Assembly (NCBI GenBank): GCA_905178155.1
Contig: CAJINV010000010.1
Span: forward strand, 3,616,587 to 3,680,586
Length of the DNA stretch: 64,000 bases
Origin: Amoebophrya sp. A120
Lineage: Eukaryota; Protista; Dinoflagellata
Direction of reading: 5' to 3'
The notes below the pieces were generated by a model. It was not told the DNA's origin, did not search any database, and worked only from the letters and a program-made list of their open reading frames with translations. Positions 11,032 through 62,996 of the stretch are shown piece after piece (position 1 is the first letter of the stretch; each line of letters begins with the position of its first letter). The translations under genes were made by a program, and so were the position numbers.

Positions 11032-12613
11032 ATGAGCCTGCTTCGGTTGTGCGCCGTGTGTTGCGGCGGGGAGAAAGACCAGGCAACTTCGTCAGGCGGA
11101 CCCGTCGTGTTTGGGACGGGCAATAATACTTCTAGCAATGGGACGAACGGTATGAGAGTGCACAACTCCCCCTCCTTCTTATTTCTCATGCAAGATTCCA
11201 AATCCACCCTTTGCCTGTTAGCACTGTTTGCATGACAGATTCCAGAATCCAAAATAGCACTGCAATCCTCTAGAAATTTGTCATGCAGAAGCTGCATCTT
11301 TGCCAGCGCTTGTGTTGCTGTTCATGCAAAACAAGTGAGTGTGAGGGGGAGGGGGAGTGGTGCACTCTCATAAACGGCACATCGACAAGGAATCTCCGGG
11401 CGAGTTTCTCCCCGCAAGCAGAGGGAGAAGCTCTGTCGCCGGCGGAGCAGGTACTTCTAAGGGTTTTGTTTAGTTTGTATTCGTGCAAGAGAAAAAAGAA
11501 TTGCAATGTAAAGTTGTCCATGACAAAGTTGGAAAACTACATCTTCTACCAGATATCCCGTGGTACTGACGACGACCTCGACTTTGGGAGCGACCACGAT
11601 ACAGACAACCCCTTTCACTATGACAACATCAATTCCAGTGGGGGAAAAAGGAGTTCCAGAATATCCTTCGGCCTCGGGAACGTGGTCGAATACGAAATCG
11701 AATCCGAAAATGAAAATGCGGGAAGTCCAGACACCAGTCCGGACAGTGGCGGCCAAAATAGATCGTCGTTTAACAATGGATATCAACTGTAAAAATGTCT
11801 GGGTCTGGAAGATTCTGACACTTGTCACGCACGTTTTGCATGAGCCATGATGTCTGTGATCCATACCCTAGCAATACAGATTTTTTGAGGGCTTCTCGAT
11901 GCCTATTTCGCATGACAAATACCTTCTCAGCGTAGCAAAAATTGCATTCCCTTTGGTACTCATGCAATACAGATTTTTTTGGAATCCAAACGCAGCATCA
12001 CAAGTTGCATTCTTCCACACCCACACACTTTTACATTTGATAATGGAAGTAGCAATTCTTTTGCTCTCGACCCCGCAGAAGACTCCCCGGTTTTGTTGTC
12101 CAGCAACAGCGAGCCTGAGTCAGATGACGGCGCGGATAGGTTGGTGGCGAAGGACTGGGTATTTGTGTATGATCAGGATGATGTTTGTCGTACAAGAACT
12201 GTTTATGTTTTGTTATGTACAACTATGGACACAGTCAACACGGATGGAAGTGCAATGGTTGCGATGCATGCGGTACGGGTTCGGAATACTCGAATTCGCA
12301 AAAGAACGTCGATACGGACTCTTTGGTGCAAAAAATAATTGCACCAAATAAAAATCCTCAGGTCGAAATGCAGAAGCGCGCGATGGCAGAGCGGATGGGC
12401 CGAAATAAGCCGGAGGGGGAACAAGGTCCAGATGGTGAAAAACCAAAAAAGCAAAAACTCCGATTTTTCAAGCGAAGACAGGATTCCATAGTGCTCCCCC
12501 CGGCGCCGGAGAAAGGCTGCTTGAGGAAAAGTAGTGCCTACTCTGCGGATATGGAGTCTCCGGACGGGCTGGCGCAGATGTACGGAATAACCCCCAATTT
12601 AGATTACGTCTGA
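11032..12613 (+). CDS. Hypothetical low-complexity protein (about 260 aa) with an N-terminal Cys cluster and an RVxF-like RISF motif
   Basis: Starts MSLLRLCAVCCGG. Removing 2 introners and GT-AG introns 11451-11552 and 12159-12361 gives a 783-nt open frame ending ...ITPNLDYV*. Confidence 0.7.
11151..11372. mobile_element. Introner family F
   Basis: TIR TATGAGAGTGCACAACTCCCCCTCC; TSD aacgg. Confidence 0.92.
11781..12042. mobile_element. Introner family B
   Basis: Family B TIR; TSD atgga. Confidence 0.92.
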
Positions 12614-14592
12614 ATATTTAGAGAGTGACATGATGATCCTGCGCCACAGGAATCCTTTTCAGTACGAGAGAAAAGAGTTTTTCAAAAGAAATAAATCGCC
12701 GCTGGACAGTCCTCGTTCGCCTGTTTTAGCGCTTCGTTCACTTCTATACTCCATAACTCCTTCCCCATCCCCCTCCCCGCGCGATTTAGGATCCCTGCCA
12801 GTTACGGACGGTGCCTGCTCGGCTTGCTGTTTGTTTGCCCCACTCAATTACTTATTTTAGTAAGTTTACTACCTGCGAAGCGACCCCATACCCCTACTAG
12901 CTCGTTCCTTAGTAGTTCTGTGAGACTCGTATTTGGTCGTAGTCATAGAAAGCTCACGTAGTCCTGCGCAGAGCACACGCGACCCTACTGTGTTTTGCCT
13001 CGTGTATCAAAAAATAAAAGAACGACCTTTTCGATAATTTATTGATTCCTTTGTGGTGAACAGCCAAACAAGCCAGAGCCATGCGCAAGACCGGCAAGCA
13101 TTAACATGTTAACAACCGAAATCACAGCGAGACGTGGTTCTTGTGAGGCATATGACCCACGGAGGATTGTTGAGATTTATGAGCTTATCGTGATCTTCCT
13201 GAAAGAAGTTTAAGTAACTTAGTCCTTCCTAGCAGCCGTGCTTGCGACACTAGCGACAGCAGGAGTTTTTTGAACGCCAGAGCAGCGACACGAAAGAACC
13301 GCTCTGAGTATAAGGAGAGCTTTTAGAATACCTAATAACTAGTACGCGAAATTTTTCACCGGTCTAGCTGTTGACTATCCACTACAACACAGGCAAGTAT
13401 AGGACGGCTTCAGGTGAACTTGTTTCTTTTTAGTTAGGTGATGATAGGTCGAAGATCGAGTAGGAAAAGCAAGAAGATTATGATATACAACAATACTCGT
13501 GTGTCCGTCGATGCAAGTCGTGCAACTCACGTTGTAATATTTCATTTTTTGATACGAGTATGTGTGGACCGTGGTCGCCCCTGAGATACTTGCTCATCTT
13601 CGTGGACAGCAAAAAATACATACAGGCTTCTTTACTTGTTTGTTTCTTCTGCCTAACTTGCAGTAGTTTAATACGCATCTTCACTGCAGCTCCTCCGCGC
13701 ATTTTGAAATAGGTACTAAATCTAACGATCAAAGAACCTCAGAAAGTAGAGGTTCTGACTGTCAGTACGACGACGTCCACCCAATACGCAAATAACAAGT
13801 CAAAAAAGTAAAATATACGAAGTACGACAAATAAGCTTTTTCAACGTCATCTCTGGGCTGTGGCGACGAGGAGTCCACCTTGGCTTGGCGGAATGCCAAA
13901 GGGGTTCTTGTACTTTTGGGAACTACAACAACTCGTCCTTCAGGTGGGGTTCTTGGTGTTCCGCTACAAACGAATCGTCGTCGTCTGGCGAAGTGCATTT
14001 TCGTCTTGATACCTCCCTTCGCAGAAGTACTAGATCATCGAAAGACATCAAATTCTCACAAGGAGCGTGTGCTGACTTTGCCTGTTGCGAGCCAGGCTTT
14101 GAAGGTGAGAGAGGACTTTATTTTCCGCTGCGCTAAGTTATAGTTGAAGTTCCGGTCGTCGTTTGGCGCCAACTCGATCGATGTCGAATCGCTTTCTGAA
14201 GAACTACAGTAGTATGGCAGATAGTTCTACTTCCCAATCTCTCTGTCTGCTTTTACTTTCATAACATTTTCTTGAAGTAGTTTTGAGTTTTCAGGTTTTT
14301 TTGTACATGAACGAAGTCAATGAGTGCCTGTTGAACTTTTTCATGGGGAGGAGGTTCTTGAGCATCTAGATGGGCAGTGATGAAAAATAGAACTACAGAA
14401 TTTGAATTCATTTCTGCTCACTCTTCTTCTACGCGGCCAGATCAGAGAGTGTGAAGAAGGTAATACAGGTAGTAGAGCCCTTATAATGTGGCTTGATTTC
14501 AAGAACATCAATCACTTTCACTTCTGTAGCATAAGGATAAGCCAGAAAGGAGGCCGCGGCAAGTAAAAAGTTTATTTGTAGTAGAAGAAAAG

Positions 14593-17500
14593 ATGGCAAA
14601 CTCTTCCCCCGGGCGGTCCGGGGAAAATAATCACAATTCGAAAAACAACTCCGCCTTCCAGCTTGCCATATCAACTGCAAAAATGTCTGGGTCTGGAAGA
14701 TTGCCAGGTTTGTCATGCATATTTTGCATGGCTTATGATGCCTGTAGTGCATGACATAGCAGCACAGATTTTTGGAAGGCTTCCTGATGCCTATTCCGCA
14801 TGACAGATGCCGTCTCCGCGTAGCACAATCTGGGCTCCCCTTGCTGGTCATGCAATGCAGATTTTTTTAGAATCCAAAAACAGCATGACAAGTTGGGATC
14901 CTTCCAGACCCAGACATATCTGCAATGCATATGCCCGGTCGCTCTTCAATAGTACCAGGAACAACACTTCGGGTGGCGGCATGTCCGGATCGAGATCTGG
15001 CTCCCCCCCTCGCGGTATGACAGTGCACAACTCACCCTCCCCGTCATTTGCATAGCATGAACGGCAATACAAGCATAAGCAAGAGTGCCGGTTTTGCATG
15101 ACAAATTTGTACTGGATTGTAGTGCTACTTAGGCTACTAGAACGTGTAATGCAAACAGTGCCAAGAGGCAAAGGGTGAATTGGGTATTTTGCATGACAAA
15201 TGAGGGGGAGGGGGAGTTGTGCACTCTCATACGCGGCCACGGGAACAGCTCGGGAGGGAGTTCTGTTTTCACGCCAGGGAAAAATGACGTGTTCCGCAAC
15301 CAAATCAACTTCGAGAATCAGGAGAACATCATGCAGGCGGGTGCTTCTGGTACCAACCAGCAATTGAACACGATGAACTCTATGGGTGGAATTGCGAACC
15401 AGCAGCAGGGCGGATCATCCTCGAGCAGCAGTTCTTCCGGCGCGGTTTTACCGTCTCACGCGGCAGGTCGAGGAGGTCAAGATAGTGCCAACAACAGCAA
15501 TTCTTCCGCTTTCTACAAGCCGGAGAAGCACCGCGCGGAGAACAAGGAGAGCTTAGTGAAGAAGGAAGTGTCTTTCGCGTTTGCGCTGGTGAAAACCTTC
15601 AACCCGGCGGACGGACACACGATTATGCAATGCAAAAGTATCGCACTCGTAGTAATCACAATCATGCGTTACAAATCTCTATCGCAAGGTAAAACAGCAT
15701 GACAAATCCGACGCGTCATGCAGCTGAGCGAATTTGTAATGCAAGAATTACTACTACTAGTACGATGGTACTTTTGCAATGCATAACGATTGATGAAGAG
15801 CAGTTTGACATCGATCCGTTGCCGTATGACAGTGCGCAATTCCCTCTCCCCCTCATTTGTCATGCAAAATATGCCAACTCCAAATGCTGCCTCGTGGCAC
15901 CGTTTGCGTGACAGATTCTGGAAGTAGCGTAAACAGCACTGTACTACGCGCATGAAGAACTTGTCATGCGCAGGCTCCATGTGCGCTGGTGTCTCTATTG
16001 CTGCTTATGCAATACAAATGAGGGGGAGGGGGAGTTGTACACTGTCATATGCCGCCAGACTCCGCGGAACGGAAGGAGAAGTATTAAATGCAAAAATGTC
16101 TGGGTCTGGAAGATTGGAACTTGTGATGCTACTTTTAGATTCCATAAAAATCTGTATTGCATGACCAGCAAGAGGAGTCTAGTTTGTGCTACGCGGGGAG
16201 GGCGTTTGTCATGCGGAGGAGGCATCAGGAAGCCCCCTCAAAATCTGTGATGCGCGGTCGTGCATTACAGACATCCTGGGTCATGCAAAACATGCATGAC
16301 AAATCTCAGAATCTTCCAGACCCAGATATTTTTACATTTCATAAGAAGGAACGGAAAACAAGAAGAGGCACGGGCGGGTCCGCATTGTATGGGAAAAACA
16401 GGGACATCAACTCTGTCTTCAACCACGAAGACGATGATTCAGATGAGTTCCCCGCGATCTCCGATGCCTTCATGACAAAGGCAAAATCGCCCGTGAAACG
16501 CCTCCCTAGTCGGATCCGGAGGGACAGCATCGGCAACCTCGCGGCCTTTTTCGACCCGATGAGCGAGGAGAGCGAGGACCTTATCAACTGTAAAAATGTC
16601 TGGGTCTGGAAACTTGTGATGCTGGGTGGCGTCTCATGATGAGGCTACAGATGCTGGCTCAGCATGACAAGTTTCTGAGCTCTTAGGTGTTGCCTATTCT
16701 GCATGACAAACTGCGCTTCTGCATCACAGAAAAGCGGAGCTCTTGGGTAATGTGCATGACAGATTTAAGAGTCATGCCAGACAAGCATGACAAACCTTGC
16801 ATTCTTCCAGACCCAGACATTTTTACAGTTGATAGACCTGACGGGGGCCTTGAACCAGGCGAATTTGGAGCTGCAGAACCAACACTTATGGATTGCAAAA
16901 ATGTCTGGGTCTGGAAAGTTGGAACTTGTAATGCTGGCCTTGCATTCCTGTGAAATCTGTATTGCATGACCAAGAACAGTGGTAGCCTCTCATGTCGTAC
17001 AAAAACGTAGTTTCTCATGCGGAGTTCGTATGAGAAGGCGTGCTGCAACCTTGTCATGCTTTCCGGCATAAGGAAGTGACTTCCTTGTGCACATTTTAGC
17101 ATCACAAATTTCCAGACCCAGACATATTTGCATTTGATAACACTTTTCGGGCACTGATGTGTCGAATAACGTGGAAAAAAGGCGCGTTTCGGTCATCAGC
17201 GACAACAGTGACGACGTTTTCGCGGTGGGCGAGGAAGAGGCGAGGAGAAGCAGCGCGGCATCGGGGATGCAGGGTATAGGGAACGAATAGAACTTCTTGT
17301 TTCAACTACCCTTGCGATGTGGTCTCATTTGCATGATGACGTTTTGCAGCTAGCAACTTCCTACTGTGTTTGATGTTCGTGTCTTCTTCACTGAAGACAA
17401 ATAATTTTGAATGAGATAGAGATTCCGATATTGACACAAAACTATCAGGGACTAACGCGAACATTAACCAGCAAGAGCGGAATTCGGACTCTTTGTTCGG

Positions 17501-20500
17501 GGAAAACGAGCCGGACAAAATCGACCACATTCCGGAAGAGCCGGAGAAGGACGAAGACTCGTTTTTCAGCGGGTTAAACACCGAATTGTCCTCTATTCGG
17601 CAGGTCACCGGTACGAACGACTTCAACCAGCCTAACATCACCTTCCAACAGTCGAACTCCTCGCAGCATTCCATGCACAACCGCGCGCGGATCCTGACCC
17701 CGAACTCCCAACTGGGGACCCCGCGGAGCATCGACGGCAGCTCCAAACGACGACGGGTGAACAACCAGGGTAGCATATCGTATGTGAAAACTTGCCCACA
17801 CCATAATCACGATGGGAAATCTGCTAGACAAATCAACCAGCTTTGGTTGCTGCGCATGACAAGTTTGGCTGTGCAGTGTAATCCCGTTGAGCTAGCTCCA
17901 GCAGCATGACAGATCTAGCGAATCGTGCTGATTCGAGCGTCACAAATTCCGAAGCACAGCTAGAGAATGCGTCTCATGTATGACGCTCCGCATGAGAAAC
18001 ATTTTGACCATGCAGATTTGCATGACAGCTATCGGGTGGGGACGTTTCTACATAGGATACAGCAGGGACATCACGGGGCAGGTGAAGTCTATGGCGGATT
18101 TGATCGAGGACATGGATCCGGGACAGAAAAATCTGAGCGACCACTTCGACGCTGTGGCGGTATCTGAGTGTTTTATGTGCCGCTCGACGAGCACCTGATG
18201 TGAGTTATCATTCATCTAAATGCAGCACAAACAAGCTGCTCGTGTTCGTCCGCAGGCATAGGTCGCATGTTGTCATGTATGTTTTTTTGATTTTGTGTTT
18301 TTACTTTATCAAATCTAAGGAAAGTCGTTTTTTATCAGGTTCAGCAATCCGAGGAGGAGATCCGGCGTAAGTCTGTGATCAAGACCGAGGGCCGGGACCT
18401 GCTCGACGACGTTTCTTCCGTCGGTGACGACGAGGAGTGCGACACGCCTTCTTTCGGGAATTTTAAGTCTCCGAACAATAACCAGGAAAATAATAACCAG
18501 AAAACAAATCGGCACTCCTCCCGGTCCCGCGGGCGGACGTTCTCCTCAATTCCGGACGATTTGAAAAACCGAAACAGCAACATGCTCGCGGGAAATGGCT
18601 TGAAATTGGATTCAGAGAAAGCCCGGGATTCGCAATTTTCCAGTTCGGGTTGGGACAGCTCGGATATGAATGTTAACCGGCGGTCCTCTGTCTACTCGCC
18701 GAATCAGGCGGATCCTTTCAACTTCCAACCCGCGCCGGCACACTCGGTATGCATTGCAAATATGTCTGGGTCTGGAAGGTTGAAACTTGTGATGCGCATT
18801 TCAGAACACAGAAAAATCTCTCATGTATAGGCAGCCAAAGTTGCTCACTTTCTGTCACCAAAGTCAGGGATTTGTCATGCGGATTCGGCATTGCGAACGC
18901 TTCTCGAAACCTGTGATGCTAGAGCTTCCATGCCAGACCTTCTGTGTCATGCAAAAGCAGCATGATTCTTCCAGACCCAGACATTTTTGCATTTGATACT
19001 CGGTGTACGGAAACAATAACTCACCCGCGGCCCGATCGGACCGCGGCGAGTTGTCGCAATCGGACCGGAATTATGAATTGCAAATATAATTTCTGGGCCT
19101 GGAAGGATGCAAGGTTTGTCATGCTTGTCTGGCATGACTGAAAAGTTTGTGATGCGTGTCCAAGAAGAAACCCTTTTGCTTGTCATGCAAGATCGCAGTT
19201 TCTCATGCGGAAAGTGCACCACTAAGCAACGCAGATATAATTTCTCCTGCTGTGCTGTGCATTACAGAGCATTCGCTATTCGAAAACCAGCATGAGAAGT
19301 TTCCAGACCCAGGTTTTTTGTATTGCATAGGAATAACCGGCATAATACTTCGCGTCACAGCAACAGTCTGAACAACAGCAAACTGGACATCGACCTCCCG
19401 CCCGAGAAAAACAGTATCAAAGTCAGCAGAGAAGTGAAAAACGCGCTGGCAAACCGGCCGATCACCATCATTCCGCCAGACCAGTTGGCTGCGGCGCGGA
19501 ACAGTATGGACTCGAATTTGTCTGGTAGGAATAATAATGCTGTGCAGCCGTTGATGAATGTAGAGAACAACAACCGCAGGGCGTCGCGCGCAAGCAACGA
19601 GGAGTGGGACCCGCGGAGACGGTCCTATCAAAAGGAAAAATCCCCCCTCCCCATATCGAAAACGAAATTTGTGATGCTGTATTTGAGTACACAAATCAGG
19701 TTTGTATTGCAGAGAGGCATTGCGGCCAGATCCCCAGGCTAGGTAGGGGCGCATGGTTCTAGTTGTGCAGCATGGCAAACGGCTCCCCTTTAGGCCTCAC
19801 AGCATGACAAATCGCTTCCATAATGGGGCGGAAGTTTCTGCCCTTGTCTTCTTGCAAGACAAATGCGATCTGTGACCTCAAATCAGCAACACAAATTTCC
19901 GGAAACGTACCTGTTCGATATGGGGAGGGGGGATTTTTCTCTTTGATAGGTCCGCTTCTTTCATGATTGGCGACGTTTCCGCTTTGAATCAGACAGGAAC
20001 GAATAGTAACAATCGAGAAAACTCCGGCTCTCGGATGAACAACAGCCAGCTGAATCGGTCCAACCTTCTCTCTCCTCGGGCGAACGAGCAGATTGGTGGC
20101 GCCACTTCCAGTCGAAGCCGGGTGGGAATGTGGAAGTCGCCGATCCAGCAGAACCCGAATCGGTCGCTGTGGGGGATTAGTTTTGAAGAATTTAAGGAGA
20201 GGATCGGGGTGTCCGATGCGGACTTAGAGAAACACATTATTGACGCGATCGAGCGGTATAAAATGCCATTAGACGAATATGGGAGTGTCAGGATCGAAAT
20301 CAACAAAATCGAAAAACTTGTGATGCATAAAATCGATACCAGTTGGAGCCTCAGTTTCCAAGCGGCGCATGACAAATTTTAGGAGCACCAAAATCCAGTC
20401 TGTCATGCTGTTTGGGCAAAGGAGACTGCTCTTGTGATGCTACTCTGGCAGCAGATCGCCTTCCCCTAAACAGGCTTGCAATCGGGTTCATTTGCTTGCT

Positions 20501-23500
20501 CCCCAACACAGGCCATGCGTGCTCTACATTTTATGCATTACAAATTTTTATTCGATTTTGTCGATTTCGATCCTGACACTCCCATAACGAAATCGCGAAA
20601 GGAGCAGCGGTTGGGGGTGCTGGTGGATCTGCAGGAGGGGGAGGAGCAGCAGCTTCAAGTGCAACAGCAGGAGCAAGTAACTCATCATCATCTTCTTCTT
20701 CATCCGCAGCAGCAGCAGCGGCGTCCGAGCTAACGTCTCTCCACCTGGACGCAAAGAAACGCGCGGTGGGATTGTTGCCGGCTTACCCGCCCCTGTCGGT
20801 GCTGCAACAGCTGAACGATTGGCAGATCAAATCGGAGGATTTGCCCGTGGTGCGGAAGTTGCTAGCGGCGAATAATTCTGCTACCGCGAGTGGTGTGGAG
20901 AAGGAGCAACATGAGCAGTTTGTGGAGCAACTACGGCAAATCGCTTTTCTCGCGATAGAAAAAGTATCCACTGCAAATATGTCTGGGTCTAGAAGAGTGC
21001 GAGATTTGTCATGCTAGTCTGGCATGAATCTGAGCTCTGTATTGCGTGGCCAGGAACATCTCCTCTTGCCTGTCATGCGAAAGCGCAGTTTCTCATGCGG
21101 ACTGCACAACACAGAGCAACCAGAAAACCTGTTATGCTTGGCGGCGCATCACAGTGCGCTTGTTATTCACCGACAGGCATCACAAGTTCCAAGACCCAGA
21201 CACATTTGCAATGCATAAAAAGGGGTGATGGACAATGCGAAGCAGCACTACGACGAGAAGTTGCGGGTTTTTTACGAAAAGGAATTTTCGAGTTTGGAAA
21301 AAGAGATCGGGGAAAAGAAGGAGAAGGTGGAGAAACTAGCTGTGCATAAGGAAAAACTCGCGAAATTATTGCAGCAGAAGAACAACATTGAACAGACTTC
21401 GAAAGCGGAAAAGGCGCGGAACGATAGACGGAGGGAAGAAGTGAAAAATCAGAAAGAGTACGGGAAACAGGTATAGAATTTTCGAAGGATTTTTGATGTC
21501 GCATGGAAAATAGATGATCTGCATGATAAAAGCTTTTTCTCAGCTCTTATACGTGTTTTACTCTCGTTCTTCGTGTCGTGGATCGGATGAAATTGCTTCA
21601 TTTTTACTCTTGTGAAAATCAGCTCGAAATCCGGATCGCGGCGGCCCGTGCGCAAGTGAACCAGAGGCGACAAAACGTGAATCACCAGCTCGAACAGCAC
21701 TCGCTCATGACCGGAGCTGCTAGTGGGAACAACAACACAACTAATCTGAACCTCACGTCCCAAACCACGCTCACCAACGTCCTCCACCCGAATGCGCCGC
21801 AGCCAACCGAACAGGACCTGAAAGCGGCAAAAAAGGCGATTCAGATCCTACAAAAGGAGAATGAATCGCTGAAAAAACAGAACGAGCGGAAAAAACTCTC
21901 CCGCGACCTTTCGAAGTGGAAGAAGGGGTTAGGCAAGGATGTCGGGAACAAAAATCCGGACAAACTCTTTCTGTACCGAGACAGCGGCTTGGGGCACGAG
22001 CTGACGTTTACCGAAGGGTCGCTGCGCTGGAGTTTCACGCCGAGGGTGTCCGAGTTCTGCCCGTTGCGGTTGAACAACGACCATCCAAACGCGAAAAATC
22101 TGGCGAAAGACATGTACAATGCCTGTTGGGTGAAGTCGCGCGGGACTATTTTAGCGGCGGCGGTTTCGCCCAGAAAAAACGCCCCGAGTTCGCCTACTTC
22201 CGGCACAACTACCGATGGGCAATCCTGGCTGGTGATCTTCGGGCACATATCAAAATGAAAAATCGACCCTCCCCATAGCAAAAAAGGGATTTGTGTAGCA
22301 TGATTTGTGATCACAAAAGACGTTGTCATGCTAGAAGGGAAGAGATGGACCGACTGTAGTACTGGCTGGCGTTGGAAAACCTTGCATCTTCAACATGACA
22401 GGACGCAACTGGAAGCGGAGAACAGCATGACAGATTACCTGCAAGCGAGGGGGGCGCAGCTGCGTCTCTTGGCCTTCTAGCAAAACAACTCGACTTGTGT
22501 ATGCAAATACAGCATCACAAATTTACGTGTCGATATGGGGAAGGGGCATTTTTCCTCTCAATAGCACAGACTCGCCCAGATCGACCGGTTTTTGAAAGAC
22601 CTGGGTGGGATATTACAATGAAAAATGCCCCCACCCCAGCACTTGGCAGCATTTGTATTGCAAACCTTTCCAATGGAAACATTTCCCGTCTTGCATATAT
22701 CAGCATCACAAATGTGCCACTCTGAATAGCTCAAATCTGTGTTGTAAAGGAGCCCAAGAGCAGGCAGATGTGTTGTGCAGCAGATGCCTTGCGTGCCTAG
22801 ATTCTGCATCAGAGAGGCTCATAGTCCTTTCATGCAAGACAAAAAGCTTTCATTTGGAAACTTTGCATGAGAAACTTTTGCACGGGTTTGGGGGCAGTTT
22901 TCACTGTAATTCGGGATTACGGGCGTCACGTTTGAGGACCACGAGTCGTTTCTGATTTTCCACGTCATGGTGACCCCCAGCATCGAAGTCAACCCCTACG
23001 GCTTTTCTGAGGTTTACCCTACCCCCGGGAGCACGAAGCGCGCGTACTGGATGTTTGATTTGCGGTTGCCGCGGTCGTATCAACTGCAAAAATAAATGCC
23101 TGGGTCTGGAAGAGTGTAAACTTGTCATGCAGGTTTTACATAACCCATGAGGTCCGGCATGCGGGATCTAGCATGACAGACTCTACTGCGAGGTCTCTGT
23201 CATGCCTCGACTGCATGAGAAACTCGAAACTCCCTCCCAACTTGGTCGAAAGTGGACAGCTTTCGGCACTCATGCAACACAAATTTTTGCATGATTCCGA
23301 TTTAGCATGACAAGTTGCAATCTTCCAGACCCAGACCTATTTGCAGTCCATAAGTCGGAACTCATAAGGTTCGCCGCACACATCCACGACGTGGACTGGA
23401 TCTCGAAGTTGCAGTGCACCGCAAAACCGACGCCGGGGGTGGATCAGAAGATGGTGCAGACGGCGATTGACGATTGTCTGGTATAGAACAAGTTAGAGCT

Positions 23501-35835: not shown

Positions 35836-35836
<1 letters not shown>

Positions 35837-53200: not shown

Positions 53201-56200
53201 CACAAGTTGCACCCTTCCAGACTCAGACATTTTTGCATTTGATACCGGAAGAAGAGCGACAACAAATCGGTCAAGCTGGTAAAAACGCCGAGCGGGAATT
53301 TTATCGTGGATGAGTCGGGGCTGGATCAGGGAGATACAGAAGGACACCGCGCATCGGGAGTTAATACAGGCAATAAACCTGCTACACGAAAATCCGGGGA
53401 TCCAGACGAGGGCACAGCACTCCCCCACGACGGGAAACACCATAAACATCCGAAAGGTAGTACCCCGCAACAGCAGCACCTAGTCGGCGGGCAACATCAA
53501 GCGGGTAGTACTCCTATGAAGGGCGCGGGAAAGCATATCCAGGGCTCTTTGCCGCCTCTAGCCCATGGAGGTTCTTCGCAGCTCTCCAACCCACAAAGCC
53601 TACTGCAGGGGATGCTTCATGGTGCCCAGGGAGCGGAAGTTGTTGCGGTCGCTGCCCCAGCAGGGTTGGCGCAACCGTCGAATGAAATTTACCATGGGCA
53701 ATCGCCCTCGCAAAACGCGTTTCTGATGGGCACGGGTGCGGCGCCGGGGCCGGTGAGCAAATTCGGCAGAGCCATGTCGAGGGAACTCAAGTACGGCTTG
53801 GACCACGCGAAGGACATACCGAAGATATCAAGAGGAAAAATCCCCCCTCCCCATATCGAACAGGAAATTTGTGATGCTGGATTTGCTTCCCCAAATCGGC
53901 CTGTGTTCCTAGAAGGCCAAGGGACGCACTTGCGGCCTTAATTGCAGGCAATTTGTCATGCTGTTTCCCACTTCCAGTTGCCTCCTGTCATGCTGAAGAT
54001 GCAAGGCCTTCTTACGCCAGCAAGCACTACAGTCTGCGTCTTTTCCCTTCTAGCATGACAACATCTTTTGTGGTCACAAATCAGCATCACAAATTTCCTG
54101 TTTGAATATGGGGAGGGGGGATTTTTCCTTTCGATAGAAGAGCCAAGAAATAAACGAGGACGATTATGCGAAAAAGATCGCGTTGAACCGCCAGTATCAA
54201 ATGTAAAAATGTCTGGGTCTGGAAGAATCCAACTTGTCATGCTGATTTTGGATTCTAAAAAAATCTGTATTGCATGAGCAGCAAAGAGAGTCCGAATTTT
54301 GCAGCACGGAAAGAGCATTTGCCATGCGGAATAGGCATCAGGAAGCCCCCTAAAAATCTGTGATGCTAGGGGATGCATCACAGACTTGAGGAGTCATGCA
54401 AAATATGCATGACAAACCCGGCAATCTTCCAGACCCAGACATTTTTACATTTGATAGCCAGAAGTACTTCGCAAATCTCACGCACGACTCACGGTTTAAT
54501 TTAGAAGAGAACCAAACAGCAGAAGAAAAAATCGCGATTTTAAACGCGTACTACGCCGAAACGGACCTCGGTTCCGGCGTCTCCGACACGAGCGCAGAAC
54601 AGTCAGAGGACGCTCTAACTGCACCAGCGAACAAGCAGGGGCATAAGAAGAAAAAAGCGATGAAAAATATCGCAGCTACAGGACCGGGAAGCAAGAGAAA
54701 GAAGATTTTCAAGGACGTGGGGGAAATTGTAACCGCTTTGGAGGTGAAGTGGCGGGATCTGGTGGATTTGGAAAAGCGGAAATTGCTCGCGTACATGATC
54801 AACGACCCGACACTTCCCGGGACTCTGGAAATCCCCGCGGAATTATATCGTAAGGAAAGATCCCCCCTCCTCATATTGAAATGGTACGTTCTCCAAAATT
54901 TGCGTTGCTGATTTGAGGTCACAAATCACATCTGTCTTGCAAGAAGAGAAGGGCAGAAACTTCCGCCCCATTATGAAGCCGGTTTGTCATGCTGTTGGGC
55001 CTACAGGGCAGCCGTTTGCCATGCTGAACAACTAGACCCATACGCCCCGACCTACCCTGGGGATCAGGCCGCAATGCCTCCCTGCAATACAAAGCTGATT
55101 TGTGTACACAAATCCAGCATCAGAAATTCTGTTTTGATATGGGGAGGGGGGATTTTTCCTCACAATAAATTATTCGACCGGCTGGTCGAAGTACCGTTCG
55201 CCTTGCCGACGCTCGGAGAGGTGCGGCATGTGGTCAAGGAGTGGAAAAGGGTATTAAGTTTATATTCCAAAATCCGCATCACAAGTTTGCTACGCATGAC
55301 ACTGAAAATCTATCTGTCATGCGGCGTTCCTAAGGGAAAACACAGCTAGAAATCCATTGTCGTGCATCTGTAGCATGACACACACTTCTGCGATCCATTT
55401 TCTGCATCACAAGTTCACAATCACAGCGAAATCATAAATCAATCTGAAACTACCCCACTACAGATCGGTGTGAAGAAGGCCGAGAAGCGGGAATCGACCG
55501 GGAGTCCGGAGACGTATTTTCATTTGAAGCAGAAAAAAACCCACTCCGACAATTCCGGTGACGGATCAGACTCCTCCGATTCCGATGTGTCCGACTCAGA
55601 TTATTCCGAAGAGGACCCGGAAAACGCAACCCCAAAATCCCACTACAAGAACCGCATAAAATCGAAGTCTTTGCAGTTTAAGTACAAAAGAGCGGTGATC
55701 GACTCCGGATTCACGCCGGTCTTCGAGTCGGATTTGCGGATTGCTTTGTCCTTCGGAATATGAACTGCAAATATGTCAGGGTCTGGAAAAGTGGAATCTG
55801 TATTGTGTGTCTTGCACTCCTGTAAAATCTGTATTGCATGACCGACAAAGGCGCGAACTTGTTGTCATGCAAAAACGCAGTTTCTCATGCGCACTGCACA
55901 TGAGGAAGCGTCCTGAAAATTTGTCATGCTTGGCTGCACTCAGGAGTATGCTCAGTCATCGCCACTTAGCATCACAAGCTTCCAGACCCAGACATATTTG
56001 CAATTCATACGGAAAAATCACGGACTTCATCGTGAAGCCGGAAAATGTGATCGACGTGTCTTTACTAAAATGCTACGGCATTGATCTAAACTCCGATCGC
56101 CTCGGCGCGGTGATTGTGTGGGCGCGGCGAAGGCGGAAGGAGCTGCGGGACGTGGAAAGAGGATTGTTAGACGCGGAGTTGGTGGATGGGTTCGATTTGG

Positions 56201-56855
56201 TGAACCAAGTGGAACAACTCTACCCAACGGAACCGGATCAGCAGGAGATGGTGTGGAAAAAGTGCGTTTTGGAAAAAACGCTCGGGCAGCAGGAAACCGC
56301 GGACATTTTGATCCACATGTCGCCGTTTTCGGAGGAGTATAGCAAGGAACTCGCGCATAAACTCTGTGTGGAGGAAAACCCGGCGAATTATGAGTTGGAA
56401 AAGCGAGTGAAAGCGCAGGTGATCCACAAATCGCAACAAGCATTATCGGCGAACAAGACGACGTTTGAATTAGATAACAAGCACGAGCACCACCACACGT
56501 TCGTCGACCCGTTAGCGCAGGACACACTAGCGCCGCCAAACGAGGAAGAGGCCGAGAAATTGCACGCTTTAGGGTTCGCACCCCGGGAAAATCTGAAGCG
56601 CATGAAGGGGTGGACTCACGCGCTGTACTTGCTATGCATTGCAAAAGTATCGTACTAGTAGAAACTGCATGACAAATTTGCTCAAGAACAAAAATGCAAT
56701 TTGTAATGCTGTTTTCCCTTAGAAAGTAGATCTGTCATGCATGACTGCAATTAGTACGAGTACGATGCTTTTGCACTTGATACTTGCAAGCGAAAATCGA
56801 CTGGATCACGCAGCAAAGGAGCAAAAAACTCGGAACGCAGCTGTCGCAGGGATAG
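50233..56855 (+). CDS. Large single-pass membrane protein of unknown function (about 1335 aa)
   Basis: Removing 9 introners and GT-AG intron 55251-55463 gives a 4008-nt open frame. The TM helix QIIAIIAAASFLLLVLALCCYLKCC lies on a small exon (52894-52977) between two introners. Stop TAG at 56853-56855. Confidence 0.75.
51698..51950. mobile_element. Introner family B
   Basis: Family B TIR; TSD cggag. Confidence 0.92.
52302..52517. mobile_element. Introner family F
   Basis: Family F TIR; TSD gatga. Confidence 0.9.
52569..52893. mobile_element. Introner family A
   Basis: Family A TIR; TSD ccggg. Confidence 0.92.
52978..53244. mobile_element. Introner family B
   Basis: Family B TIR; TSD ccgga. 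Confidence 0.92.
53826..54136. mobile_element. Introner family A
   Basis: Family A TIR; TSD gaaga; reverse-orientation sibling of 44052-44363. Confidence 0.92.
54195..54456. mobile_element. Introner family B
   Basis: Perfect TIR TATCAAATGTAAAAATGTCTGGGTCTGGAAGA; TSD gccag. Confidence 0.93.
54846..55167. mobile_element. Introner family A
   Basis: Family A TIR; TSD aatta; reverse-orientation sibling of 19626-19948. Confidence 0.92.
55759..56009. mobile_element. Introner family B
   Basis: Family B TIR; TSD cggaa. Confidence 0.92.
56633..56782. mobile_element. Introner family C
   Basis: Family C TIR; TSD cttgc. Confidence 0.92.
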
Positions 56856-58131
56856 TTTTATTTCTGAGCTGTCGTGTCAGGTTCAGTCGAAATTATTTTG
56901 ATTTCTTTTTAGTAGAGTAGATAGAGTTTATTCAGTTTTACTGAAGTTTTAGCTTCCATTTTTCAACAACCCATGTAGTAAGTACTTACACACTGTAGTT
57001 TTTGAAGAATTCTTATTCTACTGGAGAGGCAGAGGACGTCATTGGAAGCAGCTTCGCATTCATTCAATCCACGATCCGTGATTGGTTTATTGTCAAGTAC
57101 TGCTTGTTCTGAAACTCCGTCCAGGAAAAGTGTTCTTACGACTGCTACTTTGTAAAATTTCTACAGGACTTTAGGTCCTTTTTCACCTTTTTTTAGAAAG
57201 TGCTTGCTGCAGTAGATTTTTAGCAATGTGAGGATGCAAATAAAATTTTCTGTGCTAGAGGCAAGTCGATGAGGAGCATAGCTTTACCACAGTACTCAAA
57301 TAACTACAAAGGTGGGCATTTCAGCTTCAAGACGAAACTCACTCTGCATCATGGCAAGTGAGGTTTGAGAATTTAGACTCTATTTCCCCTTTCCCTTTCC
57401 GTTTCCCCTCCTCATTTTGAAAAGAAAACGCAAACCACCTGCCCAGAACGGCACGCATTTTTGCGCGAGCAGGTGGTTACACCCGCGAGCGTGGAGTTGT
57501 TTTTCACGACCTGTGTTCATCAACAAGCGCCTCCGACAAGACAAGAACGAAGCAAGGGTCCTTGTCAGTAAGAAAATTTTCCGTCATTAAGAAAATTTCA
57601 ACAATCGTTCACGGTGAGAATCTACCTACCGATGGCCACATCGCGACTATCTCGGAAATAAGAACATCAGCGGCAAGTAGGCACGCTCTCATTTGGGTCA
57701 CCTCCGTGAAAAGTAAGTACGTCACAGGACATGTTTACAGAAAGATCCAATTTTTTCATCCGTCCGATGCAACTACAAGGTCTTGTCTCTCTAGTTGTTC
57801 CGACTTAAGCAGATTTCATCTCCAAGCTACATTCAGACCGCGCATTTTCGTGGAACTTCGTTTTATTACATTTTCAGCTCAATCCTCTTTCGATGAATGT
57901 AGACCGATCGCTAGTGCCAAACACGATCCTTCAAATACTCACGATATCGCACTACAATCCATAGATTTTTTGAAACGCAACGTAAAGTTGTTGTACGTTT
58001 TTTTGAATGTTGTTGTCTACACAACTTGATTGTTGTCAGCCTACATGATTTTTTAGGAAAAATCTAACATGTCTACTGCCTGGAGGTTTTATTCCTGTTG
58101 ACACGCTACTACTGAAAGCGACTTTGCCAAC

Positions 58132-61100
58132 ATGCAGTCGGCGTCGACACGAATGCACTTCGACTCGGTTGTCGCATCACCTTGCGTGACCGAGCTGGAG
58201 CTGCTTTCCCCCTGCTCCCCAAGCTTCTCCTCCTCATCAACAGCCCCGCATAGTAAACGGAGAAAAGACCACCACTATCCATCAGCCAGACGGCCTACCT
58301 GTGGATTTGCCACCAGAATGACCTGCCTCGGCCTATTCCTGACGACCTCCACAACCACAGATCAACTGCTCTTTGTCTCCGGAAATAACTCCGCTACTTC
58401 TTCCAGCAGCAACAAAGCGACCCCCTCACCGCCAAAAGTCGGCGTCAGGCGGCAAGCCCGGTCTATCAAAGGGAAAAATGCTTCCTCCCCATATCAAAAC
58501 GAAACTTCTGATGCTGGATTTGTGTACACAAATCCGAGCTGTCTTGCTGGAGAGCACTGCAGGCCAATACTAAGGGCGGGGAGAAGGGTGTTGGCTTAGG
58601 CACTTAGCATGAAAAACGTCCGCGCTGTAGGCACAACAGCATGACAAATCGTCTGCACAATGTGGCGGTTGTCTGTGGAGTTGCCTTCTTGCACGACAGA
58701 CGCGATTTGTGACCACAAATCAGCATCACAAATTTCCGAAAGTGTACCTTTTTGGTATGGAGAGGGGGGATTTTTCCTTTCAATACGGTCTCCCCAGTCG
58801 TTTGTTGTGGAAGTCACGGCGCAAAAATTGGACGATGATGACAAATATCAAATGCAAATATGTCTAGGTCTGGAAGGATGCAAGACTTGTCATGCATGTT
58901 TTCTATGCCCCATGAGGCTTGGAATGCAGGACCTAGCATGGCAGGTTCTGCGACGTCTGTGCCACGGCTATCCTGCATGACAAACTGCTTCTATCTAAAC
59001 TTGTTCAAAAGTGTACAGCTCTTGGTAGTCATGCAACAAAAATTTTTGTACGATCGAGACGTAGCATGGCAAGTTCGCGTCCTCCCAGAACCAGACATAT
59101 TTGCAATGCATAACAAGTCGTCCTCTAGTGAGGAAACTAGTGCAGAGGCAGCTGCTCTGGCTGCGAGAAATACTAAACGGGCAGCTTGGCGGGCGAAAAG
59201 TAGGGGGAAAAAGCAAGACAGTGCAGAGACGGACGAGGATAATGACAGAGTGGTGCAACACGACGTCATCCCGGAGATGGACAAAGATTACGCGGAGAAT
59301 ATCCTGAGCAAAAACGTTCCCACCCCATAGTCAAGACGGGGACTTAGCAACACAAACCTGGAAGTTTTGGGAGTCACGCATGACAAGTTGCACCCCGTAG
59401 TGTAGTGCAGCTTAGCAAGGACAGTCGCATTACAAATCCATCTCCTCGTGCTGTTTACAGCATTACGAATTGATTCCAAAGCACGATAGAAAATGGCCCT
59501 CATGTTTGGGATGCGCATTACAAATGTTTCTGCAATTGCAAATCTGCATGACAGCTCTGGTGTGGGGACGTTTTTACTCAGGATAGAAAAGCACGGCACC
59601 GACCCAGAGTCCGCGATACGAGCGGCGACGGACAATTTAGTCGAATCTTCCGAGCTCGCATACCAGAAGCAGCAAAACAAGAAGAAGCAAGTATTACAAT
59701 GAAAAACGCCCCCACCCCTCAATTGCCAGCATTTGTACTGCAAACCTTTGCAATAGAAACATTTCCCGTCTTGCATATCTCAGCAGCACAAATTTTCCAT
59801 GCTGAATAGCTCGAATTTCAATTTGTGTTGCGAAGGGGCCCAACAGCAGCCGGATCTGTTATGCAAAAGGCACCTTGCGCACCTAGATTCTGCATCAGAA
59901 AGGCTCGCAATCCTTTCATGCAAGACAAAAAGCTTTGATTTGGAAACTTTGCATGACAAACTTTTATTCGGGGTTGGGAGCATTTTTCACTGCAATAGCA
60001 AGAGAAAAAAATGCAGTCGGAGAACGAGAGAACGAGGCTACCGGTGTTGCTAGGAACGGGGAAAAAATTATTCGAGTGCAAGATCTATGCATTGCAAAAG
60101 TATCGTACTATCTAGTAGTAAATGCAATACAAATTTCCTCAGCTGCATGAGAAACAAAATTTGTAATGCGGATCTACGTATCACAAAAAGATTTCGATTT
60201 GTAATGCATGACTGCAATTACTACGAGTGCGATACAACTTTTGCGCAGGATAAAATCCCGCCGCCAATCGGCGACGATATGGAGCGGATTTACTCCCTAG
60301 CGAAGGCGAAACTCGCGGTGTTGGAGCATGTCTGTGTGAAGCTACCGGATACAAAGGAAGACGCGGACAAAATCCACTCTGTTGACTCCGAGTACGATCT
60401 GTGTTTCGAAAGGGGGGAAGCTTTGCTTCGGCCAAGAGCAGCGCTTCTGAATCCAAACGTCGGACACACACCGCAGCACACGAAGCAGCAGCAGGAGTTA
60501 ATACCCTCGGATCAGATAGTTTTGGCCAGGGATAACAAGAAGGAGGATCATGAGAACAGTAGTAGTGCAACATCTTCTTCCAACACCCCACATGATACTA
60601 CTATTCTGTCCCTGAGAAAGCGGATGTGGCTGATAAGATCCCTAATCGAGGGGAAAGATTACGAGCAGGAGGATGTGGACAAGAAGTTGCAGAAGGTGAG
60701 AACGGAAATGGACGAAATGAGCAGGGAACAGGGGATTATTACAACTCCGGATGACGAGCAACTGGCGAATAGGAATACCGATGCCGTCACAGCACAAAAC
60801 AGTAGAAACGCGACTGATAGAAATTCTGCACCGGATTCTCCTTCGTCCGCCTCCTCCGAGAACTCCAATGTGATGGTCACGGCTAAGGAGTTCTCAAATG
60901 TTACATCATTCTCAACTGTTACACGAATTTGTGACGCAAAAACAGAAAGAGGGAAAGTGGCAAGCTTGCAAGTTCTGACCCTATGCCGTTCCAGCACCTG
61001 CGGAGGCTTGCCTCCAAAGCTACGCTGGACAATGGCAATGTCGGTGCGGTTGTTTTAGCATCACAAATTTGGCACATCAGATTCTGATGCTGTTTAGCAG

Positions 61101-62996
61101 TTCGAAAATTTGTCATGCGAAGCAGCGTGATCGTTTGGCAGCTCATGGTCATTCTGCATGGCAAATCATGTAAGAACAGTTGAGAACGTAAAAACATTTG
61201 AGAACGCCATAGCGGCAGCGTACCAGCCGAAGCAAGCGAGCTCTTTGATTTATCAGGAAGAAACGGGGTACTACGTCCCGAAGCCGGAGAAGCCGCCCAA
61301 ATACCCAGCTGAATACGGGAAAAAGCGGAAAACGGATTTTGTACCCGACATTGCGGTAGCGATTCACTTTCTCAACGGGAAAAAGAAAATCACCTGCGAA
61401 TGCGCACGGCCGACGGAGGAGACAATAAGGTTTTTATCCTGAGTAAAAACGTCCCCACACCAGAGTCAAGATGGGAGATCGGCTAGACAAATCAACCAGC
61501 TGTGTTTGTTTCGCATGACAAGTTTCGTCCCCTCGTAGCGTTGTCCTGTTTAGGTAGTTCAGCAGCATCACAGATCTAGACTATCATCTTGATTCTAGCA
61601 TCACAAATTCCACGACGCGACTAGAAAACGCTTTTCATGGGGCTCCGCATGAGTAACATTTTGAGCTTGCGGATTGGCATGACAACTCTGGGGTGGGGAC
61701 GTTTCTGCTCAGGATAGTTTTTGGTGGATGTCGACACAGTCACCGGCCTGGGGGAAAAAAAATTGTTGCTCGCGAAGGCCGTCTCGCCGGACAGGATCGT
61801 CTCTCCCGCGTGCTGCAGCTTCAAGGGAAAACCCGCGCCAGAGGTCTGTGGACAATTTTGTAATGCTGTTCTTGGACGACGAACATCAAGTCGATCATTA
61901 GTACGATTTGTATTCGCTATTCAATGAGATCATGATAAACAACAAAATCAAAAACGTCAATCAGGACCTCCTCTGGCCATTGCTGCACTCCCAGGATTTC
62001 TGCTCTCGCTACCAGCCGCAGCAATACAAGCAACTTTCCGGCATCACAGATTCCGAACTCTACACAAGATCCTGGTGGACGACAGAGTTTTGCCTCGGTA
62101 TGTATTGCAAATATGTGTCTGGAAGGTTGCAACTTGTAATGCTGTCTTTGGATTCTAAAAACATCTGTGATGCTGATGTTGCATGAACAGCAAGAGAAGT
62201 TGATTTTGTGCTACGCGGAGACGGCATTTGTCATGCAGTATAGGCATCGGGATTCAGGAAGCCGAAGCCCTGAAAAAGTCTGTGATGCTAGAGCATGCAT
62301 CCACAGACATCATGGGTCATGCAAAATGTGCATGACAAGTCTGGCACTCATTTTCCAGACCCTTACATATTTGCAATGCATACTCGGGGCAATCACCCAG
62401 TTCCACGTGACAAAGTCCGGGCAGGCGCACGGGTCCAGGATAGGCTTGGGTTACTTGAAGCCGGCGGATTTGATATGCAATGCAAAAGTATCGTACTGCA
62501 GTTATGCATCACAAATCCAGATGTTACGCATTACAATTTCCATTTCTGGTGCTGAGGAAATTTGTATTGCAATCACTACTAGCACGATGCTTTGGCAGTT
62601 CACATTTGACGATGACAAACAACGCGCTGTTGCATATCAGAAGGAAAAATCCCCCCTCCCCATATCGAAACGGAGATCTGTGATGCAGATTTGTGGTCAC
62701 AAATCAGCTTTGCCGTGCTAGAAGGGAAAAGATGCGGACTGTAGTGCCGATTGGCGTGGGAAAGCCTTGCATCTTCAGCATGACAGGAGGCAGCTGGAAG
62801 GGGGAAACAGCATGACAAATCGCCTGCAAAGAAGGCCACAACTGCGGCTCTTGGCCTTCTAGCATGACAAGTCGATTTGTGTACTGAAATACAGCATCAC
62901 AAATTGCGTTTTCGATATGGGGAGGGGGGATTTTTCCTGTAGATATTGCAAACTGTGGAGGGCGGGACGTGCTCGAGTCAATTTCAAGTTTTCACG
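58132..62996 (+). CDS. OS-9/ERLEC1(XTP3-B)-like ER lectin with MRH (PRKCSH) domain(s); 3' end unresolved
   Basis: After removing 10 introners and GT-AG intron 61844-61964 the frame reads FC...RSWWTTEFCLGAITQFH...IGLG...LQTVEGGTC, matching the MRH signature WWxYEFC..QFH..LG..GTxC. A weaker first repeat may be present (C...EYDLCFERG). A GTAT donor lies at 62997; the next exon was not identified. Confidence 0.65.
58464..58785. mobile_element. Introner family A
   Basis: Family A TIR; TSD cggtc. Confidence 0.92.
58846..59112. mobile_element. Introner family B
   Basis: Family B TIR; TSD acaaa/acaag. Confidence 0.9.
59300..59585. mobile_element. Introner family D
   Basis: Family D TIR; TSD gagaa/gaaaa; sibling of 28075-28353. 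Confidence 0.9.
59692..59997. mobile_element. Introner family H
   Basis: Family H TIR; TSD gcaag. Confidence 0.92.
60086..60252. mobile_element. Introner family C
   Basis: Family C TIR; TSD agatc/aaatc. Confidence 0.88.
60884..61211. mobile_element. Introner family J (single copy here, starts TAA)
   Basis: TIR TAAGGAGTTCTCAAATGTT...TTCTCAACTGTT / AACAGTTGAGAA...AACATTTGAGAACGCCATA; TSD acggc/gcggc. Confidence 0.85.
61435..61716. mobile_element. Introner family D
   Basis: Family D TIR; TSD gtttt; opposite orientation to 5734-6018 and 39987-40284. Confidence 0.92.
62099..62382. mobile_element. Introner family B
   Basis: B-type TIR; TSD ctcgg; excision restores WWTTEFCLGAITQFH. Confidence 0.92.
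62474..62604. mobile_element. Introner family C (right end ACA)
   Basis: Family C TIR; TSD tttga. Confidence 0.87.
62635..62945. mobile_element. Introner family A
   Basis: Family A TIR; TSD ttgca. Confidence 0.92.

Follow-up and report, generated by a model that had tools for sequence, protein, structure and literature searches.

TAT...ATA introner-type elements of Amoebophrya sp. A120 are skipped in either orientation in transcript-like contigs, with a putative asymmetric cut beside their inverted repeats

Introners and inverted-repeat introns in other systems

The genome of the parasitic marine dinoflagellate Amoebophrya sp. A120 contains 29,850 repeated introns (PMC7789003). According to the accessible text of that study, these introners start with TAT, followed by seven looser bases and AAA, carry inverted repeats as well as direct repeats of up to 5 bp (3-5 nt), measure about 240 nt, have RNA-supported non-canonical junctions and fall into repeated families (PMC7789003). 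The elements of the window analysed here (the whole 64-kb stretch of DNA) have the same features, and comparison at the sequence level makes them very likely identical with the published introners. The elements themselves are thus already published, with their border left undefined: the accessible text calls the border position unknown, and is silent on orientation, on an internal motif and on a fixed register (PMC7789003). An earlier statement on the orientation or register of Amoebophrya elements was not found in the literature, where subscription papers, figures and supplements could carry one; the cut register and the one-directional internal motif described below are additions not found in print.

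Several better-characterized systems are alike in part, as far as the consulted portions of their descriptions go. Introners of Polarella glacialis and Aureococcus are likewise transposon-derived, bear target duplications and are functional either way round, but have GT/GC/GA-AG sites that are element-borne or recruited from the duplication (bioRxiv 10.1101/2020.10.14.339549); the two-way classes first described there are orientation-biased, whereas the window elements show neither bias nor a terminal dinucleotide rule. SOS splicing also takes inverted-repeat elements out of mRNA without GU-AG, but it is an imprecise, sequence-independent process, demonstrated in animals, that leaves indels (PMC12779559), whereas removal here is exact and TAT/ATA are nearly invariant. 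The Amoebophrya elements thus share with SOS substrates the pairing of inverted repeats (157 of 159 predicted folds), but not the variable cuts and indels (13 of 13 joints exact). Nonconventional introns of euglenids have paired ends, direct repeats at the junction, a probable MITE origin and a 3' unpaired end longer than the 5' one, but differ in lineage and in code, which is CDG/CHG with N3 and N5-6 rather than TAT/ATA with N1 and N4 (PMC12501133, PMC11282704). The non-canonical introns of Fritillaria borealis are also MITE-derived, with inverted repeats and duplications, and are handled by a modified U2 spliceosome; their preferred ends are AG-AC and AG-AT, whereas the first and last two letters of the window elements are free (PMC11282704, PMC13326754).

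Elements in the window

The window holds 62 elements with TAT...ATA termini, inverted ends and 5-bp target duplications, which span 5036..62945 and total 16,458 bp. They form nine families of 3-12 copies plus six singletons, and no orientation conflicts occur among copies. A scan of the window for TAT..ATA ends with inverted repeats gave 55 non-overlapping candidates, 54 of which were kept, whereas three dinucleotide-shuffled versions scanned in the same way gave 0, 0 and 1; a lenient search contributed the other eight. Two candidates were discarded: 6473-6665, which has no duplication, and 48610-49051, judged a chance pairing.

The elements are non-coding, 131-328 bp long, and combine terminal inverted repeats of 25-30 bp with a duplication of fixed length, as do MITEs and other non-autonomous DNA transposons. 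Because of these repeats, both orientations present the same end sequence over about 30 nt. TAT starts 59 of the 62 elements, A occupies positions 11, 12 and 13 in 52, 55 and 57 of them (the A run is missing from families C and G), and the 5-bp duplication is perfect in 47. At other loci, where the duplication was not a selection criterion, 225 of 298 elements carry one of 5 bp and none carries one of 6 or 7 bp. As to an autonomous, transposase-bearing partner, the longest related elements found there are 457-834 bp, in loci of up to 4.6 kb, and a search of viral contigs gave 0 element matches. The elements are best explained as non-coding DNA-transposon copies, A120-type introners, sitting in genes at random orientation.

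Orientation of sibling copies and of copies relative to genes

The earlier note had claimed that siblings within families lie as reverse complements of each other in genes of the + strand, and this holds for all five pairs compared. In family B (11781..12042, +; 42565..42831, -), 227/267 columns are identical in the reverse-complement alignment versus 169/278 on the same strand. The corresponding counts are 279/323 versus 213/345 in family A (19626..19948, +; 54846..55167, -), 267/313 versus 222/329 in family A2 (44052..44363, +; 53826..54136, -), 229/289 versus 168/295 in family D (5734..6018, +; 61435..61716, -) and 261/307 versus 213/337 in family G (46180..46486, +; 42192..42498, -). All ten stretches begin with TAT and finish with ATA exactly at these coordinates. 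When 35 nt were trimmed off each end, so that the inverted repeats could not drive the match, interior identity reversed and on the same strand was 0.86 and 0.55 for B, 0.87 and 0.56 for A, 0.84 and 0.62 for A2, 0.75 and 0.48 for D, and 0.84 and 0.55 for G, or 75-87% against 48-62%. The copies at 11781 (perfect 5-bp duplication), 19626 and 5734 (duplication mismatch at position 3) lie outside both stretches compared with transcripts, the first two being placed by scan and alignment.

Genome-wide counting of orientation relative to the host gene had been proposed as a check, a strong bias being what would speak against removal in either orientation. At other loci, 165 copies divide 83:82, without bias, in genes that are themselves 81 + and 84 -. 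This count comes from 163 loci of one metagenome assembly (12 of 64 parts scanned), picked by the end pattern of families B and B2, rather than from the whole genome; 298 unique elements were reduced by dropping 36 whose duplication matched at fewer than 4 of 5 positions and by keeping only those to which a strand (called for 193) as well as a family (called for 227) could be assigned. None of the 163 loci matched a window gene, hence they provide no empty-site alleles.

Removal from transcript-like contigs

Contig sets X1-X5 were compared with the window; the transcript-like ones are assembled cDNA-based contigs whose RNA run type is guessed and in which rare forms are hidden. One raw-read run, X8, contributed 2 reads. 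The + strand gene at 36621..46615 (main frame 36621-45164, second frame 44899-46615) contains 13 elements, and all 13 are skipped by exactly the element plus 5 nt in X1-X3, two of them also in X4. The joints are exact in each case with no indels listed, as far as contigs that hide rare forms can reveal them. Four members of the sibling pairs are directly seen to be removed: 42192 (joint 42186/42499, skipping 312 = 307+5; fold z -10.1), 46180 (46174/46487, skipping 312; fold z -11.2), 42565 (42559/42832, skipping 272 = 267+5 in X1-X3) and 44052 (44045/44363, skipping 317 = 312+5). The two G copies, in opposite orientations, are skipped on one and the same contig. The copy at 39096, with a GC-donor-like C at +2, is still removed.

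A further 14 elements are skipped, one directly and 13 by exact length arithmetic that also requires removal of one 213-nt GT-AG intron. Transcript and frame data place nine elements and one GT-AG intron in the + strand gene 50185..56855, and seven elements in the + strand frame 58102..61927. Length arithmetic on X1 record 3 covers 53826 and 54846, and that for five elements (1796-423 = 1373) covers a family D copy at 59300..59585 (-). The D copy at 61435 is supported by alignment, family and frame data, its junction not being among those listed. Overall, six families are removed in both orientations, B2 and G directly and B, D, A2 and A with at least one orientation by arithmetic, so that the central proposal of the earlier note, removal of the same element whichever way it lies, is borne out in transcript-like contigs. 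X5 contigs extend 22-31 nt into elements from both sides, showing that elements are unskipped in that data set. Contigs with skipped elements also need the GT-AG intron removed and stop near gene ends, consistent with removal at the RNA level in the cell.

The reading frames point in the same direction. Once each element plus 5 nt is taken out, + strand pieces no longer than 1.5 kb join into stop-free runs of 5739, 3174, 1833, 1767 and 1092 nt, although from the sequence alone the removed length is fixed only up to a multiple of 3 (+2, +5 and +8 each open the frames). Retention introduces an in-frame stop for 51/51 elements in 13 long frames, so living cells have to get past the elements, in one frame as many as ten times. 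Restoration of the + strand frame by both siblings of each pair, also claimed earlier, stands for the long stop-free runs and meets limits at two copies: removal of 46180 restores the downstream frame 44899-46615, which lies +1 to the main frame of the gene, and two + frames are open across 11781. Rad23-like and KBP-like genes are among the hosts. The sole homologue found for a window protein in a protein search is from Amoebophrya A25 (52%), and one window protein is present in NCBI and EukProt. Gene blocks in the window are co-oriented, as in the published A120 text.

Position of the cut

A perfect duplication leaves the cut position ambiguous within it, and imperfect ones are informative. 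In the family D element 39987..40284 (+), the copies differ at position 5 and the cut falls before it (joint 39981/40285, slide of 4 letters). The family B2 element 41376..41632 (-) has its mismatch at position 4 and is cut after it (41374/41637, slide of 1 letter), and the family C element 41764..41982, mismatched at position 3, is also cut after that position (41761/41986, slide of 2 letters). The left copy is likewise kept in the family E element 60086..60252 (mismatch at position 2; X1 and X4 pieces begin at 60255) and in the TAA-start element 60884..61211 (mismatch at position 1; X1 and X4 pieces end at 60879, near side only). The left copy is thus kept at 4/4 informative positions (1-4). 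These imperfect duplications suggest that the 5' cut lies 1 base upstream of TAT and the 3' cut 4 bases downstream of ATA, a register decided by two junctions, 41376 and 39987, in one sample. It would probably be common to all families and asymmetric in the transcript, about 1 nt outside the stem on the 5' side and 4 nt on the 3' side. Mismatches in 27 imperfect duplications are spread evenly over positions 1-5 (p 0.59), and their distribution does not itself fix the register.

In this putative register, the first two letters of 193 elements are GT in 64, AT in 60, CT in 40 and TT in 29, and GT..AG ends occur in 9. Allowing any register, GT/GC-AG ends are found in 14/193, unlike U2 introns, and among the window elements GT-AG is possible in any equivalent register for just 2/62. 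Positions +1, -2 and -1 are thus unconstrained.

Canonical introns offer a comparison. TAT occupies +2 to +4 in 8 of 11 GT-AG introns picked by eye, as it would in the elements, and TA stands at -6/-5, element-like, in 5 of these 11 (background 0.055). The ends of two of the 11 were confirmed against A25 protein; an automated GT-AG intron finder recovered 4/11 exactly, too inexact for a larger test. The putative cut appears to coincide with the position of G-TAT donors, but the match could instead stem from canonical introns being captured elements. The 213-nt GT-AG intron at 55251..55463 (+) required by the length arithmetic is, when aligned with five intact copies, an eroded member of a TAT..ATA family, its interior being 69-90% like copies at other loci.

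Signals in the elements

The earlier note had held that all the information needed for removal is symmetric, including the stem, the termini and a bidirectional motif. This is sustained for the ends, some 30 nt of which read alike both ways, but not for the motif or for the cut of 1 versus 4 nt. In family D the internal motif is one-directional, with 0.1 forward and 4.3 reverse sites per + copy (n=12), and is therefore not a symmetric RNA signal. The copies at 39987 (0 forward, 5 reverse) and 59300 (5 forward, 0 reverse) are both removed. Same-direction motif pairs are spaced 31-33 bp in 75/160. The periodicity score gave no sign of helical phasing: it was level between 10 and 11.5 bp and reflected the peak at 31-33 bp. 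The GCAWNACA-type motif is probably a double-stranded DNA binding site for a mobilising protein, not a splicing signal.

A base-paired stem is a plausible, putative signal for removal, and its closure would bury +2 to +6. Selection on an RNA stem left no sign in two comparisons: G-U and A-C mismatches on the transcribed strand number 171:166 (p 0.83), and the sense strand folds better in 89/159 (p 0.15). Branch-like YTRAY near the 3' end shows no excess (67 sense versus 82 antisense of 159), in a test weakened by the symmetric ends.

Candidate mechanisms

A relaxed spliceosome is the best guess for the catalyst, which is the least sure part of the account; we hold it tentatively, at somewhat below even likelihood, and ahead of a nuclease-ligase route. 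Such a spliceosome would read the TAT/ATA ends and the paired inverted repeats common to both strands. Pairing of the element ends would trigger removal, and excision would take the element with one copy of the 5-bp duplication, cutting in the 1/4 register suggested above. Consistent with this, TAT would lie at +2 to +4 as in canonical introns, an eroded element serves as a GT-AG intron, and C at +2 is tolerated. Spliceosomal catalysis depends on intron positions +1, -2 and -1; their freedom in the elements argues against a spliceosome, as do the lack of YTRAY excess, the burial of +2 to +6 by the stem and the missing sign of RNA-stem selection. According to the accessible text, A120 retains 83/89 spliceosomal proteins, with U1 not detected (PMC7789003). 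The earlier premise that spliceosomal signals are strand-specific was too strong, because inverted repeats of 25-30 bp duplicate the ends on both strands, leaving a spliceosome compatible with symmetric ends; the introners of Polarella and Aureococcus have ends of spliceosomal type and yet function either way round (bioRxiv 10.1101/2020.10.14.339549).

A spliceosome-independent nuclease and ligase, which would read the paired repeats with TAT/ATA, cut beyond the stem at distances of 1 and 4 nt and join the exons, is a serious competitor of somewhat lower probability. Unconstrained terminal letters and strong predicted stems would follow naturally from it, whether as a precise form of SOS splicing, which is set off when inverted repeats pair, depends on AKAP17A, CAAP1 and RTCB and seldom involves GU-AG (PMC12779559), or as the euglenid route, for which a short 5' and longer 3' unpaired end (N3, N5-6) is likewise described and separate machinery is favoured by its authors (PMC12501133, PMC11282704). 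However, SOS splicing leaves indels where the 13 joints are exact, the placement of TAT at +2 to +4, as in canonical introns, would call for a separate explanation, and the mismatch and fold tests gave no stem-selection signal. In its strongest form, a dedicated base-exact system would ignore terminal letters and place its cuts at 1 and 4 nt from an RNA stem capped by TAT/ATA, neutralising insertions at any site and orientation as a precise SOS counterpart for tens of thousands of introns; this form is doubtful.

It is improbable that the joints are falsitrons made by template switching in cDNA synthesis. Falsitrons are described as consisting of a hairpin between direct repeats, such products can reach 70% of cDNA reads (>90% in some samples), and all the RNA-like data here are assembled contigs; but all 51 elements, including those of the Rad23-like and KBP-like genes, stop translation if kept, the 13 elements are all skipped on long contigs, and the 41376 joint takes a 1-nt match, not the 3-nt block favoured by template switching (one case). 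Slightly less probable still is programmed, ciliate-IES-like DNA removal or RNA polymerase skipping, which is inherently orientation-blind and fits the TA-type termini, inverted repeats, motif spacing like that of a DNA-binding site and guessed identity of the runs, but not the accompanying loss of a GT-AG intron from contigs that finish near gene ends, the X5 contigs that run on into elements, the retention of the left copy as a transcript-polarised cut predicts, or the definition of the introns from RNA-seq versus genome by Farhat et al. (PMC7789003); low-level element-free DNA could still exist, because the joint table is swamped by X5 cross-matches.

Implications for Amoebophrya

The apparently fixed cut beside paired ends likely points to the workings of an unexplained kind of splicing. 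With the internal motif excluded, the splicing signal is narrowed to about 30 nt per end. If the 1/4 register holds genome-wide, it would show where to seek lariat or circle junctions and give annotators a rule for placing borders. A precise non-spliceosomal route, if true, would amount to a splicing chemistry new to nuclear mRNA and to a cassette that can be removed without a scar; a spliceosome without need for G at +1 or for AG would be likewise notable. The lack of orientation bias, the freedom of target sequence and the exactness of removal together explain how coding sequence can fill up with a transposon so cheaply.

Element Catalogue and Orientation

The window carries 62 elements of 131–328 bp that begin with TAT, end with ATA, have inverted repeats and are flanked by a 5-bp duplication, perfect in 47 of them; three shuffled controls of the scan gave 0, 0 and 1 candidates. 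Terminal variants occur at 5453, 22611, 39096, 60884 and 62474 (starts TAC, CAT and TAA; ends ATT and ACA), and 6473–6665 is element-like, with motifs and a TAT start and without a clear duplication or an ATA end. Other repeats in the window include a long tandem array (1–4800; unit of ~115 bp with internal inverted motifs), internally duplicated GC-rich blocks (32400–35700) and a region whose very high depth in contig set X5 suggests a different high-copy repeat (48000–49340).

Nine families take in 56 of the 62 elements without conflicts of orientation, and pairs within these window families number 97 in the same and 96 in opposite orientation. The five sibling pairs described as mutually reversed in the earlier note are borne out: all ten stretches are present, and each pair aligns far better reversed than on the same strand (identity with terminal repeats trimmed, 0.75–0.87 vs. 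0.48–0.62).

A strong orientation bias relative to host genes, which was to speak against two-way removal, was not found in the window or in loci of one metagenome assembly. In the window the minority orientation accounts for 18/56, with 19.5 expected at 50:50, and an 80:20 bias has a P of 0.008. From a single metagenome assembly, 163 loci enriched for families B and B2 were scanned without use of the duplications; they hold 298 unique elements, 225 of which have a perfect 5-bp duplication. Host strand was called by a codon model (47/62 window elements called, all correctly; 41/45 multi-element loci concordant), and orientation was 83:82 among the 165 elements with both a strand and a family call in this B/B2-enriched sample; no family among them departs from 50:50 (largest departure 30:40, p 0.28). 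Longer elements, of 457–834 bp, that share these ends and have perfect duplications (L030 632–1465, L034 2314–2770, L062 571–1051, L064 2315–2945) are possibly nested, or nearer to a parent element.

Host Frames and Transcript-Like Contigs

Scripted removal of each element with one duplication copy yields + strand frames as long as 5739 nt, and all 51 elements inside 13 long frames bring an in-frame stop if retained; the frames by themselves define the excised length modulo 3 and no further. Domain matches in the exons are to ubiquitin, UBA and XPC-binding domains, in a Rad23-like order, and to KBP_C. The conserved Rad23-like gene (29407–32122) holds three elements and five GT-AG introns. Among 3475 candidates a single homologue of the KBP exon was found, an Amoebophrya sp. 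A25 protein with 52% identity; when the spliced product is aligned with it across a D element, removal of element+5 scores best by a small margin (2005 vs. 1997–2000). A 5.7-kb spliced frame ends at 45164, and a protein-like frame, shifted +1, continues to 46615; X1–X3 contigs are identical to the window over 44710–45419, so the break at 44899–45164 is not an assembly error and may be a natural frameshift, re-initiation or a truncated allele.

Contig sets X1–X3 come from one sample and X4 from another in the same study; that they are RNA is a guess, and possibly they are not independent of the source of the window. At 36400–47400, X1–X3 lack 13/13 elements, each joint omitting precisely element+5; two of these elements are skipped in X4 as well, and the listed joints have no extra letters or indels. 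The variant element 39096 is among those exactly skipped, and both G copies are skipped on one 3353-nt contig. At 42001–62000, a direct joint across element 56633 omits 155 nt (150+5); X1 record 3 has 1858 letters against 4318 in the window, the difference being eight elements (2247) and the GT-AG intron 55251–55463 (213), and X1 record 4 has 423 against 1796, or five elements (1373), a length repeated in X4. Removal is thus supported for 27/62 elements across these two stretches, by contigs that are blind to retention, and removal in both orientations, as had been claimed, is seen directly for B2 and G and, with at least one orientation by arithmetic, for B, D, A2 and A. That the GT-AG intron must also be removed, and that contig ends lie near gene ends, argue that the contigs are transcripts. 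X5 contigs extend 22–31 nt into elements.

Position of the Cut

The border of A120 introners is given as unknown in the text of Farhat et al. (PMC7789003), with repeats 1–5 nt from the splice sites. Imperfect duplications reveal which copy enters mRNA: the left copy is kept where the mismatch falls at duplication position 1 (60884), 2 (60086), 3 (41764) or 4 (41376), and the right copy where it falls at position 5 (39987). If one rule fits all families, the intron would be N-TAT...ATA-NNNN; we infer this register with reserve because only 41376 tells a fixed register from a longest-match rule. Introns so defined would begin with GT (64), AT (60), CT (40) or TT (29; n = 193), and 20/193 would end in AG. 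In any register, GT/GC..AG is possible for 14/193, and GT..AG for 2/62 window elements. Phase 0 is in excess at this register (98:47:48 in the loci, both strands; 23:13:15 in the window), which places the duplication centre on codon position 2. Of 27 mismatches between duplication copies in the loci, 13 are synonymous in the called frame.

Symmetric Ends and Internal Motif

The proposal that all information for removal is symmetric holds for the ends, whose first ~30 bases are identical in both orientations, and is not supported for the internal motif. The polarity of the motif depends on the family, and within family D it is unidirectional, yet D copies of both polarities are removed. The motif is therefore not a required strand-specific RNA signal, and its self-pairing is not needed. 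Elements contain it 18.8 times per kb, 11 canonical introns 8.6 times and other sequence 0.6 times. Predicted stems are strong, with z −10.1 and −11.2 for the two G copies (42192, 46180), and are closed in 157/159 folds; no strand preference was seen in them. Cut-and-paste transposons carry subterminal repeats; the same-direction motif spacing of 31–33 bp (75/160 window pairs; 283/671 overall, summed) would suit repeated putative DNA-binding sites of a transposase.

Mechanism of Removal

Removal by a relaxed spliceosome is tentatively favoured. The register puts TAT on +2 to +4, as in 8/11 canonical introns, TA stands at −6/−5 in 5/11 of these introns too, and C at +2 is tolerated (39096). One GT-AG intron is a decayed element: in its interior, 55251–55463 shares 69–90% identity with copies at nine further loci, the five copies that were aligned are intact TAT..ATA elements, and 55251–55463, which has lost both inverted repeats, appears from these alignments to be an introner turned canonical. 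A120 also keeps most spliceosomal proteins, yet U1 was not detected (PMC7789003, text). Counted against a relaxed spliceosome are the free terminal intron letters, the lack of any branch signal seen in the elements, a donor buried in the predicted stem, and the hand-picking of the 11 canonical introns, of which an automated finder recovered 4 exactly. A precise nuclease-ligase route, with precedents in SOS splicing (PMC12779559) and Euglena (PMC12501133, PMC11282704), is a serious if less probable alternative. Skipping during reverse transcription, which would make removal only apparent, fits the element anatomy but leaves translation unexplained and is improbable; removal at the DNA level is the least likely of all.

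The window elements are alike to A120 introners in every feature tested, and A120 is the probable strain. Polarella and Aureococcus introners are two-way as well, but have spliceosomal-type ends (bioRxiv 10.1101/2020.10.14.339549). Literature searches, and the text and supplementary text consulted on Amoebophrya, yielded nothing on the orientation of these elements, their register or their internal motif. The element system is already known and the observation made in the earlier note is real; with the added details of orientation, register and motif, the question of how these elements are removed becomes testable.
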